DNA of 64,000 nucleotides, from positions 1,600,001-1,664,000 of the forward strand of contig OZ252098.1 of NCBI GenBank assembly GCA_965248355.1. The letters run 5' to 3'. Origin of the DNA: Candidatus Latescibacterota bacterium (GTDB taxonomy: Bacteria > Latescibacterota > UBA2968 > UBA8231). Numbering within the stretch: the first letter of the stretch is position 1; each line of letters starts with the position of its first letter. The notes under the pieces were generated by a model. That model ran no database searches. It was not told the origin of the DNA and saw only the letters and a list, made by a program, of their open reading frames with translations. A program made the translations under genes and the position numbers. Below are positions 46,501 to 48,898 of the stretch, one piece after another.

Positions 46501-48898
46501 CGACATCGACGACTACGACATCCAGTACCGCGAAGGGGACAGCGGCGGCTTTACCTCCTGGACACACAACGGCCCGGAACTCACCGCAACCATCACCGGT
46601 CGTAGCCCGGGCACGAGCTATGAGGTGCAGGTGCGAGCGCGCAACGACGAAGGCGCGAGCCTCTGGTCCCCGTCGGGCAGGAGCTGTTCAGAAGGCGGCG
46701 ACGCCCCGACGCCGGTGGAAGTGGAAGTGACGGCGGTGCCCATCGTGGTCGCGTCCACGACGGATGAGTACTTCGTGCTCTATGTACGGCACGATCTGGA
46801 TGGCACAGAGGTCGAGATCCCTGTGCTGGTGAAGAAGGGTGAAGCGGGTACGACAACGCTTGCTGAGAACGTGGCGGCACTGCCCAAGGAGCGCTACCGG
46901 GTCGAGAAGTACCTCCTCGCTGACCCAGCCGACGTTGACGGCGATTGCATCGACGACATCACCGAACTCGATGACCTGGGCAGCCTGAACCCGGTGAACG
47001 CCGCCGGCAGCGTCGACCTCAACGACGGCGCCGTGGCCCTTCCCGACAGGGCAACGTTTGAGACCCTCTCCTATGGCTTCGGAGCCAGGACGTACCTGAA
47101 GTTCGTTCTTCTAGGCTTCAACACCGAAAACCCGCGGGTCTACTTTCTGAACGCCACCACGCACCCCGGACACCCTGGCTTCACAAATACCCTCTATGCG
47201 CTGGGCATCGAGGAGGACGGCGCCGACTACGTATACAATGGTTTGATCACTTATCACCGCGATATCCGTTCCGACAATGGGGGTCTCGGAGTTTACACAT
47301 TCTGGATTTACGGCATCAAACCCTTCAGCCACGTGGACCTCATTCATACGTTGCTCGCCGCCAGCATGCCGGTGCTTGAGCAAGACCTTGCCTATAACTT
47401 GAGCAACTATGAGATTTTGGCTATCCAAGACGACTTGCCGCTCTACGAGGCGTCCCGAATCAACGTCATGTTCGACAGAGACCTCGCTCCCGAGAGTGAT
47501 TTCATCCCGTTGAACCAGGCGATAGGGTACGGCCTGCTGCGGCACATGGACACGGACGACCGTCCCAACCCCCGCGACGTGGTGATCTACGAGGCGCTGC
47601 CCAACAATCTGCCCCGCGTCGCCGGCATCATCACCACCATGCCCCAAACGCCGCTCTCGCACGTCAACCTGCGCGCTGTCCAGGACGGCGCGCCAAACGC
47701 CTTTGTCCGCGGCGCCCTCGACGACCCCCAAATCAGTGCGCTCATCGGGAAGCACGTCCGCTACACGGTCAGTGAAGACGGATACACCATCCGGGCGGTC
47801 ACCAAAGAGGAAATCGACAACCACTATGCGTCGTCCCGCCCCGCCCAGCCGCAGACGCCGGAACGCGACCTCTCGGTCACTGAGATCACCCCCCTCAGCG
47901 ACATCGGCTTCGATGACTGGGACGCCTTCGGCGTCAAGGCGACCAACGTGGCCGTGCTAGGAACTCTCGGGTTCCCGGAGGGGACGGTGCCCGACGGCTT
48001 CGCGATCCCGTTCTATTTCTACGACGAGTTCATGAAGCACAACGACTTCTACACCCGCATTGAAACCATGCTGGCGGATGAAGATTTCCAGACGGACTTC
48101 CAAGCCCAGGCGGACTCACTCAAGAAACTGCGCAAGGCCATCGAGGACGCGGAGACGCCGGATTGGATCGTCTCGGCAATCGAGACCATGAATGAATCTT
48201 TCTCCGCGGGGATCAACCGTCGCTACCGGTCCAGCACCAACAACGAGGACCTGCCGGGTTTCAACGGCGCGGGCCTGTACGACTCCAAGAGCCAGAAGCC
48301 CAGCGAGGACGAGAGGGACTTGGCCAAGTCCCTCAAAGAGGTGTATGCCAGCCTGTGGAACTTCCGCGCCTTTATCGAACGTGACTTCCATCGTGTCGAC
48401 CACCTGTCTGCCGCCATGGGGGTCCTGGTGCACCCCAGCTACCGGGACGAACTGGTCAACGGCGTCGCCGTCAGCTTCGACCCCGTCTCCGGCAGGGAGG
48501 GGCGCTACTACGTTAACAGCCAGGTGGGCGAGGACCTGGTAACCAACCCAGATGCGCACTCCATCCCAGAGGAACTCCTGCTACGCCGCATACGCCTCTC
48601 GAATAGTGTGTCTGTCGAAGTCCTTGCTACTTCCAACCAGGTTAGCCCAGGTGAATTGCTCATGAGCGGCACTCAAATTCATCAGTTGGGCCAGCACTTG
48701 ATCGTGATCCATGAGGAGTTTAAGGAGCTGTACGACCCAGGGCCCGATGAGCCGTTCGCCATGGAGATCGAGTTCAAGATCACCAGCGACAATATCCTGG
48801 CGATCAAGCAGGGCATTGTCCCGATCTTAGTTGAAATAGCACAGGCTCCCATCGTTACGTTTGATACGAGAAATCCCCAAGAAGCCTCGTATCGGTAA
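40571..48898 (+). CDS. Giant secreted protein: 2 YWTD propellers, ~4 Ig-like, 6 cadherin-like and 5 FN3 domains, phospho-His swivel and PPDK-type ATP-grasp domain; C-terminus disrupted by IS
   Basis: Signal peptide; 12 (L/M/I)YW(T/A)(D/E) repeats; DYE and ATD.E cadherin motifs; SLTVTWDEP..YEVQV.A FN3; GIITTMPQTPLSHVNLRA; FGVKATNV, VPDGFAIPF, RSSTNNEDLPGFNGAGLYDS, EIEFK..AIKQ. Start may be 40541 or 40571. Confidence 0.9.
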   Translation: MRFPSRCHPGDGRPAALGLLVVSFLCLFPGALSESRVEGQGGAGDQEAEDSGPSRLYWTDAGSDKIQRALLDGSEVEDVVAGPRQLRGLTLDLAGDRLYWADRGAGKIQRADLDGGGEQDLVTGLSHPRSLVVDAEAGRMYWTDSGTDKIQRSDLDGSGVEDLVTDGLQTPLGLALDADAGWLYWTDWGTDKIQRARLDGSGVEDLVTGLHTPRGLALDLGAGRMYWTDSGTDKIQRAHLDGSDMEDLVTGLRLPRALALDAEAGQIYWTDAATGQIQCANLDGSDVRDLVTGLRDPRGLALALTGTPNRPPVVAPMADRTLAAGDTLTLPLTGHDPDGDDLTWQARSADEKVAAAAVRADSLRLVARAPGRAAIEVTARDPGGRTGTERFTVTVPANRPPEAVARLYWTESGRGRIRHAHLDGSGVEDLVTGLSQPRGLALDAAGGRLYWTDPRADKIQRASLDGSLIEDLVTTGLEAPSGLALDPAAGRLYWTDYGTDRVQRAGLDGSGVEALVTTGLRQPQGLALGAGRLYWTDAGADRIQAADLDGAGVRNLVTTGLQSPQDIALDTLGGYLYWADFGTDKIQRAPLDGSPVQDLVTEGLRAPQGMALDAAAGRIYWTDTGTGKIQRARLDGVGVEDLIAEGLDTPYDLAVGAGLPARRVRVGDEPDTLALAGRFRDPEGGPLSYHAVSADMAVAAAEVAGARITITAVAAGRTSIAVTARDPEGLRATLPLAVQVLPRPNRPPTLLPLADLTATAGDTLTLGIQATDPDGDRLRYTASAADSAIARASAVDSVMTLRPKAAGETTIAVTVRDDSLEAAGSFGLTVEWPNRAPVAGDLPDRQVFLGDEARVPLAKVFSDPDGDRLGYTAASKNPAVAAAEAARDTLTITPVAEGQAAIDVTATDPEGLQAAGTFTVTVKPKPPPGGGGGGGGFIPPPPPPPPPANNQAPTFDDGTSTARTVLESAPARQGIQHPVRATDPEGHPLTYRLAGPDADHFTVDRSRGQLRTRTGVAYDYETTDRYSVTLHAEDPYGGTDAINVTVHVADVDEPPQAPARPRVEPASSTSLTVTWDEPVNTGPDVNDYDLQYRKSGSFLPWPHTGPGATTTIPDLDLNTRYEVQVRATNDEGTGAWSASGFGSTGANQRPVFEESAPTRSLDENTPPNRNIGTPVRATDPELSPITYRLAGRDADSFTLDETRGQLRTRPGVTYDFETRSRYSVTVEATDEPGGRATITVTIELTDDDNERPDTPDKPSVTASTLNSLSIRWTAPANTGPDVNDYDVHYSEDGGAFTDWPHVGPGTTTTITGLKANTPYEVQVLARSDEGESLWSESVDVRTIANRAPTFTEGTSTTRTLAENTTGTTDIGNPITASDGDGGTLTYHLEGTDRASFSLDGNQLQTIAGVAYDYEEKSSYVVIVRVQDGQGGSNTIEVAINLIDRQEPPETPAAPRVIPASSTSLTVTWDEPANTGPDIDDYDIQYREGDSGGFTSWTHNGPELTATITGRSPGTSYEVQVLARNAEGTSDWSPSGTGSTHPNQPPVFTDGSSTTRSFAENTTGVQNIGDPLSATDPEGTPLTYSLEGTDADAFTINSRSGQLRTKSDQTYNYEAKPRYVVSVKATDGHSGERTITILINLNDVNEPPSFTSDATFETEENNRSIGRVDAVDVDNGDGITGYTLTGGADQDQFEINSAGALTFKEAPDFEDPADSGRNNEYIVEVTATGGTETQEQTTTQTITVTVENADEPPGKPDLPTVSNETENSLTVSWDEPSNTGPPITDYNVQYREGSSGAFTAAAHDGTGRTTTIANLESDTSYEIQVQATSDEGTSQWSPSGNGRTGANQAPTFTEGSSTTRRLVENTTGAHNIGNPITASDGDGGTLTYHLEGTDRASFSLDGNQLQTQSGETYDYEEKSSYVVIVRVQDGQGGSNTIEVAINLIDRQEPPETPSAPRVIPASSTSLTVTWDEPTNTGPDIDDYDIQYREGDSGGFTSWTHNGPELTATITGRSPGTSYEVQVRARNDEGASLWSPSGRSCSEGGDAPTPVEVEVTAVPIVVASTTDEYFVLYVRHDLDGTEVEIPVLVKKGEAGTTTLAENVAALPKERYRVEKYLLADPADVDGDCIDDITELDDLGSLNPVNAAGSVDLNDGAVALPDRATFETLSYGFGARTYLKFVLLGFNTENPRVYFLNATTHPGHPGFTNTLYALGIEEDGADYVYNGLITYHRDIRSDNGGLGVYTFWIYGIKPFSHVDLIHTLLAASMPVLEQDLAYNLSNYEILAIQDDLPLYEASRINVMFDRDLAPESDFIPLNQAIGYGLLRHMDTDDRPNPRDVVIYEALPNNLPRVAGIITTMPQTPLSHVNLRAVQDGAPNAFVRGALDDPQISALIGKHVRYTVSEDGYTIRAVTKEEIDNHYASSRPAQPQTPERDLSVTEITPLSDIGFDDWDAFGVKATNVAVLGTLGFPEGTVPDGFAIPFYFYDEFMKHNDFYTRIETMLADEDFQTDFQAQADSLKKLRKAIEDAETPDWIVSAIETMNESFSAGINRRYRSSTNNEDLPGFNGAGLYDSKSQKPSEDERDLAKSLKEVYASLWNFRAFIERDFHRVDHLSAAMGVLVHPSYRDELVNGVAVSFDPVSGREGRYYVNSQVGEDLVTNPDAHSIPEELLLRRIRLSNSVSVEVLATSNQVSPGELLMSGTQIHQLGQHLIVIHEEFKELYDPGPDEPFAMEIEFKITSDNILAIKQGIVPILVEIAQAPIVTFDTRNPQEASYR
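44678..46634 (+). repeat. Near-identical ~455-bp internal repeat (44678-45131 and 46181-46634) encoding a cadherin+FN3 unit
   Basis: Long identical nucleotide runs at a constant in-frame offset of 1503 bp. Confidence 0.9.

Follow-up and report, generated by a model that had tools for sequence, protein, structure and literature searches.

A large adhesin-like open reading frame (ORF) in a 64,000-nucleotide stretch of Candidatus Latescibacterota DNA (GenBank assembly GCA_965248355.1, contig OZ252098.1, positions 1,600,001 to 1,664,000 of the forward strand; hereafter the window) was found to end in a module that joins a predicted phosphoryl-carrying histidine domain to a PPDK-type ATP-grasp domain. 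The module is a portable unit of a large unnamed family, not a one-off fusion. By analogy with PEP synthase (PEPS), rifampin phosphotransferase (RPH) and glucan water dikinase (GWD), it would be a surface-displayed, ATP-dependent phosphotransferase of the water-dikinase type; we give this reading somewhat better than an even chance. The features of the locus are listed in Table 1.

Table 1. Features of the adhesin-dikinase locus, with positions numbered from the first nucleotide of the window
Feature	Coordinates	Strand	G+C (%)	Description and basis
Whole ORF	40541..48898	+		2785 aa, single open frame; putatively exported multi-repeat surface protein, dikinase module, then 28 codons derived from an insertion sequence (IS)
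Signal-peptide-like N-terminus	40541..40669	+		Basic stretch, hydrophobic core at ~residues 26-38; hydropathy heuristic
Stalk	40670..46657	+		YWTD/Ldl_recept_b propeller repeats, Big_9, Cadherin x4, fn3 x5, Gly/Pro linker
First part of ORF	40541..44000		74.2
Last part of stalk	44200..46657		62.9
Conserved 718-aa dikinase module	46658..48811	+	60.1	Protein residues 2040-2757; homologue searches, AF2 model
N-terminal beta-sandwich of module	46715..46915	+		Strands predicted for residues 6-72 of half-model; PDB search without convincing match
Acidic DxDxDxxxD loop	46922..46957	+		D2131/D2133/D2135/D2139 at nt 46931-46957; invariant in 36/36 rows of alignment A1
Alpha/beta domain, ~146 aa	47048..47485	+		Invariant module H172; presumed acceptor-binding domain; alignment and predicted structure
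His swivel (phosphoryl carrier) domain	47501..47839	+		Predicted catalytic His2374, codon 47660-47662; fold matches, invariant His
PPDK-type ATP-grasp, cut after Gln2757	47930..48811	+		Pfam PPDK_N, Foldseek, family profile
IS-derived tail	48812..48898	+		28 codons and stop from left end of IS, replacing the native last 12 residues
IS256-type insertion sequence	48812..50234	+	64.4	1423 bp, imperfect terminal inverted repeats, no target-site duplication
Transposase gene	48914..50185	+		423 aa; Transposase_mut (Mutator family), E 8.3e-36
5'-truncated adhesin remnant	50235..52854	+	70.4	Partial fn3, cadherin, fn3, FlgD_ig C-terminal domain; frameshift between 51720 and 51729
Surrounding chromosome			73.6-75.1

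Organization of the module and comparison with known dikinases

Conserved positions were taken from alignment A1, which contains the window module and 35 relatives (36 rows; numbers such as H335 refer to the module). All four aspartates of the acidic loop (D92, D94, D96 and D100) are invariant, and the type of motif suggests a Ca2+-type site. Also invariant are H172 in the alpha/beta domain and, in the His domain, residues Q330, T331, L333, H335, N337, L338, R339 and A340. The invariant residues of the ATP-grasp are K427, R524, S525, S526, N528, E530, D531, E703, E705 and Q718; the A-R-(P)-W sequence after Q718 is nearly so. The catalytic His is kept in all of the 120 best hits, as is the RSSxNxED motif, while the Lys motif is present in 119 of them and Q-A/S-R-P-W in 114. 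Conservation of the N-terminal alpha/beta domain equals that of the catalytic domains, H172, K148, D130, N165 and R267 being invariant or near-invariant in A1. Pfam PPDK_N (PF01326) matches residues 2464-2747 of the protein (E 1.3e-23; 84.3 bits against a cut-off of 27).

An initial annotation, made from the nucleotide sequence of the window, had described about 2,000 residues of extracellular repeats followed by a DxDGD-containing domain, an unknown domain of ~170 aa, a swivel domain with an intact His in the sequence LSHVNLRA and a full PPDK-type ATP-grasp, with no PEP/pyruvate barrel before the IS. Most of this layout was borne out. Pfam recognizes 11 Ldl_recept_b (YWTD) repeats, one Big_9, four Cadherin and five fn3 stretches, all upstream of PPDK_N and in one open frame with it; the acidic loop and the His (residue 2374) are as described, and no barrel is found before or after the IS, Pfam scans of the protein and of the module yielding no PEP-utilizers_C match. 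The unknown domain has no match in Pfam, NCBIfam or ESM Atlas and no convincing one in PDB; an alpha/beta fold of ~146 aa is predicted for it. The ATP-grasp is of the stated type but not full, since its match covers profile positions 5-294 of 328 and in intact relatives reaches position 308-315.

When the whole module was modelled by AlphaFold2 (AF2) with A1, the predicted local distance difference test score (pLDDT) was 89.1 and the predicted template modelling score (pTM) 0.82; for the N-terminal 387 aa, modelled with alignment A2, the values were 92.4 and 0.77. A Foldseek search of the PDB with the whole model matched RPH (5hv1, E 1.1e-15), HpeI (9goj), PEPS (2ols) and PPDK (1kbl) over ~330 columns, corresponding to the ATP-grasp; the R337A mutant entry 2dik is also among the matches. 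With the N-terminal half, convincing matches were obtained only through ~residues 268-380, that is, the swivel His domain, which resembles that of RPH (5hv2, prob 1.00, 108 columns, rmsd 3.1), the phosphoryl carrier domain of PPDK (2fm4, prob 0.98) and the N-domain of PTS Enzyme I (1zym/2eza, prob 0.85-0.90). No GWD chain was among the PDB matches, and the GWD central-domain entries 9HA9 and 9QVI were absent from those of this half. The structural comparison with RPH that the initial annotation had proposed thus found a counterpart for both domains. A family profile searched against the PDB matched PEPS 9dae (2.3e-17), and its terminal Q-A-R-P aligns to the Q-A-R-P that closes the ATP-grasp of PEPS 2ols. 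In PPDK the Arg that would correspond, to go by the PEPS alignment, is a catalytic residue. With a PPDK_N-type ATP-grasp and a predicted His carrier domain, the module can be placed, on sequence and model, in the PPDK/PEPS/RPH/GWD superfamily.

The nearest relatives by layout are the plant enzymes. In the accessible text of PMC13553574, potato GWD1 consists of two CBM45 domains, a central domain made up of 20 alpha-helices, a His domain and, at the C-terminus, the domain that binds ATP, and GWD1 and phosphoglucan water dikinase both proceed from substrate-side domains through the His domain to a C-terminal PPDK-type ATP-binding domain. The module follows the same order and likewise has no PEP/pyruvate barrel. 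Its catalytic His lies at the start of a short helix in the swivel domain, as in GWD, and is preceded two residues earlier by a Leu, the counterpart of L990 before H992 in GWD (PMC13553574, accessible text). The GWD-like order put forward in the initial annotation therefore stands as to the succession of acceptor region, His domain and ATP-grasp; it does not extend to the nature of the acceptor region. In the module the ~265 aa before the His domain are predicted mostly as strands with few helices, forming a beta-sandwich and an alpha/beta domain, whereas the central domain of GWD is ~440 aa long and all-alpha according to the accessible part of its published description. Neither CBM45 nor CBM20 was found by Pfam in the protein or the module. 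Given a pre-His region of this kind and no carbohydrate-binding domain, the module is GWD-like in layout and not a member of the GWD family. The proteins also differ in setting: GWD works in the plastid, and the module protein appears to be exported and is fused to an adhesin.

RPH, considered here together with its relative phenolic phosphate synthetase BsPPS, provides the best structural match for both the ATP-grasp and the His domain. In RPH a phosphate of ATP passes via the His to the hydroxyl of a non-metabolic acceptor, and water takes the gamma-phosphate (in part after the accessible text of PMC13553574). The order of domains differs, being ATP-grasp, rifampin-binding domain and His in RPH; the acceptor domains are unrelated and RPH is cytoplasmic. 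With the RPH models of NCBIfam the scores are 24-49 bits, the cut-offs being 999-1700 (NF041857, 49.4 against 999, on the ATP-grasp only). PEPS and PPDK share with the module the swivel His carrier domain and a PPDK_N ATP-grasp with conserved Lys, R-S-S-x-x-x-E-D, acidic pair and terminal Q-A-R-P. In the module, unlike in these enzymes, the His domain precedes the ATP-grasp, no PEP/pyruvate TIM-barrel is present and the protein is probably exported. The reversal is also apparent in the alignments, where the module's ATP-grasp corresponds to chain residues ~10-340 of the matched chains, the ATP-grasp coming first in PEPS, PPDK and RPH. NCBIfam scores for PEPS and PPDK are 69-72 bits against cut-offs of 598-740.

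Family size, export and spread between phyla

The module as delimited in Table 1 served as the family query. In a word-indexed search, 8000 candidates were scored and 2592 proteins reached E<=1e-3; the top 120 of these share 61-95% identity with the query over 93-100% of its length. An exhaustive HMMER search of 1.84 billion representatives of 50%-identity clusters recovered 4413 clusters at E<=1e-3, of which 2522 reached E<=1e-10 and 1215 reached E<=1e-30. In most of the best 150 of the 4413, query residues ~5-718 were matched as one piece. This piece may take an N-terminal, central or C-terminal position in proteins of 538-3769 aa, and one protein (P0147) carries it twice. Its partner domains include cadherin, fn3, cadherin-like PF12733, Calx-beta, Big_9, PKD, DUF285 and SLH. 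A scan of genome contigs matched at least 604 stretches, at least 573 of them encoding relatives, and 74 loci were kept. In 65 of the 74, module start, His-motif region and module end lie in one uninterrupted frame that extends upstream and/or downstream of the module; extracellular repeat domains were found in these extensions in all eight architectures scanned. One locus (L036, Latescibacterota) has an architecture almost identical to that of the window protein.

No names were returned for relatives in the 10 clusters looked up, and no curated family for the whole module was found in Pfam or NCBIfam; the NCBIfam matches cover the ATP-grasp only and fall far under the cut-offs (at best, 72 bits against 598). 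A search of the full-text literature, with subscription journals and closed supplements outside its scope, found no paper describing the module; a query on its Pfam domain in sponges led to a single paper, on unicellular relatives of animals. The initial annotation had singled out the fusion as a candidate for an undescribed system. These searches agree with that as regards the whole module, and the 4413 clusters show that the fusion is not singular.

The window protein and its relatives look exported, as had been proposed for the former. In the first 70 aa of the window protein, the top 12-residue Kyte-Doolittle mean is 2.86 (a heuristic value, not a SignalP score). By the same heuristic, among 277 family members with a length of >=600 aa, 207 have a hydrophobic N-terminal 12-mer scoring >=1.8. 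The remaining 70 mostly begin within the module, a domain or a repeat and resemble cut gene calls. In many family members the module starts within ~35-70 residues of the N-terminus, straight after the hydrophobic segment. An invariant acidic loop and partner domains of these kinds would also be typical of extracellular proteins. The initial annotation had suggested a survey of homologues for signal peptides and adhesin fusions: fusions to adhesin-type repeats are found, and N-termini that look like signal peptides are indicated by the hydropathy heuristic. Several relatives (P0003, P0009, P0029, P0048 and many others with an N-terminal module) share a conserved, acidic, helix-like C-terminal tail of ~35 residues; it has no Pfam match in P0003 or P0029 and may be an anchoring or docking element.

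The repeats of the stalk are those of the "eukaryotic-like" repeat proteins of sponge symbionts (cadherin, fn3 and YWTD, to go by the accessible literature), and they recur in many relatives; here, unlike in the symbiont proteins, the repeats bear an enzyme module. The word "dikinase" is absent from the accessible text of the sponge-symbiont repeat-protein papers found in a full-text search, and the accessible text supplement of PMC11706023 has no entry for PF01326, PPDK_N or dikinase.

According to the record titles of the metagenome-assembled genomes (MAGs) from which they come, the 74 loci span six bacterial phyla and one archaeal phylum: Chloroflexota (50 loci, mostly Dehalococcoidia), Actinomycetota (8, in Ca. 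Aldehydirespirator, Ca. Poriferisodalis and Acidimicrobiales), Acidobacteriota (8), Latescibacterota (4), Thermodesulfobacteriota (2), Binatota (1) and Nitrososphaerota (1, the ammonia-oxidising archaeon Cenarchaeum sp.). Cenarchaeum is a sponge associate. Sponge-symbiont clades exist in Poriferisodalaceae and Aldehydirespiratoraceae, according to the accessible text of PMC11706023.

A tree was built from 66 modules, namely that of the window and those of 65 loci, with a "quick" method and with the Shimodaira-Hasegawa-like approximate likelihood ratio test (SH-aLRT) as its only support measure; L005, L019, L021, L025, L031, L033, L053, L059 and L065 were left out for stops or a missing end motif. 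The seven phylum labels require 16 changes on this tree, against a minimum of 6, and Actinomycetota alone require 8 changes for 8 rows. Among the cross-phylum sister pairs starred in the tree are L036/L037 (Latescibacterota/Binatota; 92% nucleotide identity, synonymous divergence dS 0.17) and L012/L013 (Chloroflexota/Actinomycetota; 90%, dS 0.19); a further cross-phylum pair, L057/L073 (Thermodesulfobacteriota/Acidobacteriota), shows 84% identity and a dS of 0.37. To judge from the tree and these identities, the module is horizontally mobile between phyla. The ratio of nonsynonymous to synonymous divergence (dN/dS) lies between 0.15 and 0.54 in all 12 close module pairs. Module GC ranges from 57.5 to 67.3% (median 61%) across loci, with far-flank GC at 50-70%.

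Some genomes hold several module genes: L039 and L055 are on one contig (OZ253456.1), L038, L040, L044 and L045 on another (CBDDEI010000002.1), and two identical copies occur in one chromosome. Some loci are broken. In six of the 74 (L005, L019, L021, L025, L033 and L053) the frame in which the module begins breaks off ahead of the His motif, the end motif is missing in L031, L059 and L065, and 348 short proteins resemble pieces of the family. These cases reflect either frequent pseudogenisation or frameshift errors in long reads.

The interrupted copy in the window

The IS in the window begins directly behind codon 2757 of the adhesin ORF, 12 codons short of the natural stop. Its inverted-repeat core occurs in the window only at 48825-48838 (+) and 50209-50222 (-), where 0 chance matches are expected, and the window holds no second copy of the element. 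The flanks share no direct repeat. Members of the IS256 family make target-site duplications of 8-9 bp, so the missing duplication points to a deletion or rearrangement that later affected the right end. Among relatives, the closest ones (P0146, P0142 and P0002, with 88-95% identity) end 12 residues past the insertion point, from which it follows that the module was C-terminal in the lineage of the window protein. Intact relatives continue beyond this point as ARPW plus ~8 residues. As the IS cut removes the conserved ARPW, with the Arg of Q-A-R-P, the window copy is probably inactive.

Continuation of the gene through the IS was considered, for a P-W-V sequence in the right flank resembles the module end; it belongs, however, to the A-P-x-x-x-Y-x-Y-R pattern of the downstream fn3 repeats. 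The right flank falls inside an fn3 domain of the start-less adhesin remnant, which is either what is left of a separate, 5'-truncated gene or the outcome of a deletion linked to the IS. Its frameshift is due to decay of the gene or to a sequencing error. A FlgD_ig-type C-terminal domain ends two proteins of the window, at 15251-16141 and at 51619-52854, which suggests a common sorting or anchoring signal in this organism.

The GC content falls from ~74% to ~62% within the ORF, at ~43.9-44.5 kb, well upstream of the module junction. A block of ~60-63% GC in a chromosome of ~74% is consistent with recent import. The stalk also contains two 300-nt stretches, 44594-44893 and 46097-46396, that are 91% identical and correspond to two near-identical cadherin-fn3 units; the pair indicates a recent internal duplication and a risk of assembly collapse. 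The fn3-to-module junction, placed near 46680 in the initial annotation, which had made its case depend on reads spanning that point, is found in the same form in P0146, P0142, P0002 and P0143 from other contigs, and so is not peculiar to the assembly of the window. In the simplest reading, a resident adhesin gene received an imported cadherin-fn3-module block, which was later hit by the IS with a rearrangement at the right end, in an order of events deduced from the present arrangement. As an imported, IS-disrupted copy, the window gene is unsuitable as a functional reference.

Just upstream of the adhesin gene, a stretch of ~63% GC (37480-40602) contains ORFs of 293-377 aa on both strands with no Pfam match at E<=0.1. 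Further upstream, in the high-GC part, are genes for a homologue of the WelO5-type carrier-protein-independent halogenases (28536-29363) and for an FGE-sulfatase (sulfatase-modifying factor-like) protein (36029-37687).

Proposed reaction, alternatives and meaning

By analogy with PEPS, RPH and GWD, the ATP-grasp would bind ATP, and the swivelling His2374 would take over the beta,gamma-pyrophosphoryl group with release of AMP. The gamma-phosphate would then go to water. Finally, the His domain would swing to the N-terminal domain and deliver the beta-phosphate to a hydroxyl group on an acceptor bound at that site. The setting would be extracellular, with the module terminating an adhesin-like stalk or forming an internal part of it. 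The initial annotation had named host glycans, proteins or small molecules as possible acceptors, and consumption of extracellular ATP as another possible role; all of these would be candidates. The sequence and model data establish how the module is built, that its catalytic residues are kept, that family members bear signs of export and that it has spread between phyla; catalysis with all its chemical steps, a water-dikinase stoichiometry, a part for the N-terminal domain in acceptor binding and a supply of ATP are inferred.

Several observations weigh against this scheme. Activity data were found for no member of the family. ATP is not normally plentiful outside cells, and an extracellular ATP-dependent kinase requires a source of it. 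The N-terminal ~265 aa matched nothing in Pfam (E<=1), NCBIfam or ESM Atlas, and Foldseek returned no convincing PDB fold for them, so that the acceptor role is suggested by position and conservation. A search with this region among proteins of 145-464 aa gave 348 hits; the 120 listed carry no Pfam family on the region (fn3 or PF13753 occurring only elsewhere), and the single named protein among them is a "hypothetical protein". Of the domains for which the initial annotation had suggested a profile scan, PPDK_N was matched, and the PEP-utilizers mobile domain (PF00391) failed to match the His domain even at E<=1; the swivel assignment is owed to the predicted fold and the invariant His, and the fold match is itself modest (best E 6.9e-4, with 5hv2). 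The signal-peptide call is a hydropathy heuristic, and dN/dS values as high as 0.54 denote a constraint that is not extreme. When all ORFs of >=120 aa in the 74 loci were clustered by all-against-all BLAST, no conserved neighbour or operon partner emerged as a clue to a pathway; most recurrent clusters consisted of ORFs that overlap the module gene in a different frame or lie on its complementary strand, and the others, in 12 loci or fewer, looked spurious or unrelated. Mis-binning of title-labelled MAGs could inflate the apparent transfers, an error limited by the fact that the L036, L037 and L013 contigs are chromosomes of 4-5 Mb.

The difficulty of ATP supply would disappear if the module were a delivered effector, acting inside a host (sponge-type) cell, a phagosome-derived compartment or another microbe on the ATP of that cell, where it would phosphorylate a target or deplete the ATP. 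A cassette that moves between the N-terminus, middle and C-terminus of large surface proteins, occurs twice in P0147, reaches four loci on a single contig and has spread across phyla has traits in common with the cassettes of effectors or toxins. The scanned architectures showed no domain specific to translocation, autoprocessing or a secretion system, though, and the invariant Ca2+-type loop and the adhesin partner domains better fit a protein that stays outside. Among the 74 loci no small gene, such as one for an immunity protein, is conserved next to the module, which argues against an interbacterial polymorphic toxin. We consider delivery unlikely on the whole. Much the same standing, that of an improbable alternative, is given to a scavenger or sensor of extracellular ATP, which would convert ATP to AMP and 2 Pi via the His with water as the sole acceptor, blunting host danger signalling or sensing nearby lysis, its N-terminal domain being structural or adhesive. 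Secreted ATP-consuming enzymes exist in host-associated bacteria, and all ATP-grasp and His residues are kept while the fold, Atlas and short-protein searches indicate no acceptor. On the other hand, an alpha/beta domain as conserved as the catalytic ones (H172, K148, D130, N165, R267), and always found travelling with both His domain and ATP-grasp, behaves as an acceptor site would, and a three-domain swivel machine seems elaborate for hydrolysing ATP.

It is very improbable that the adhesin-dikinase protein is a chimera produced by collapse of repeats or of the IS, the true dikinase being cytoplasmic. The 91% identical internal repeats, the GC drop inside the ORF, the lack of a target-site duplication and a right flank not contiguous with the left could all be cited for it. 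The GC shift lies well away from the junction, however. The same junction recurs on other contigs, in one case with 88% identity over 1034 aa (P0146, the module of P0002 being 95% identical to that of the window). Add to this the uninterrupted, extended frames of 65 loci, the extracellular repeats in the eight scanned architectures and the near-identical layout of L036. An ordinary, degenerate or misannotated PEPS, PPDK or RPH deserves hardly any credence: PEPS and RPH are indeed the nearest matches of the ATP-grasp in sequence and structure, but the NCBIfam scores remain far below cut-off and on that domain alone, the domain order is reversed relative to all three enzymes, neither a PEP/pyruvate barrel nor a rifampin-binding domain is present, and family members have export signals.

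The catalytic core of the module is known; what is new is its acceptor region, its exported context and its mobility across phyla. To our knowledge, PEPS, PPDK, RPH and GWD, the characterised His-swivel dikinases with which the module was compared, act inside cells or plastids. A large, constrained and apparently exported family that keeps every catalytic residue implies either phosphorylation outside the cell or a new delivered effector, and either would be new. The module is compact (~700 aa), is confidently folded in silico and lends itself to a clear assay, so that the question can be tested directly. Its distribution over six bacterial phyla as well as an ammonia-oxidising archaeon, with known sponge associates among the genera and 90-92% nucleotide identity across phyla, marks it as what may be a shared, exchangeable trait of one habitat and a candidate symbiosis factor, one not picked up by surveys of repeat proteins in their accessible text. 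More tentatively, and with chances we would put well short of even, it seems conceivable that an extracellular water-dikinase system carried on adhesin stalks, and passed by gene transfer among at least seven phyla, archaea included, uses ATP in an animal (sponge-type) matrix to phosphorylate a polymer of the host matrix or a small molecule. If so, phosphorylation might open an insoluble host polymer, by analogy with the loosening of starch by GWD, or might mark or neutralise a host molecule. This would constitute a new biochemical mode of host-microbe interaction and would add a new acceptor-domain fold to the dikinase superfamily.

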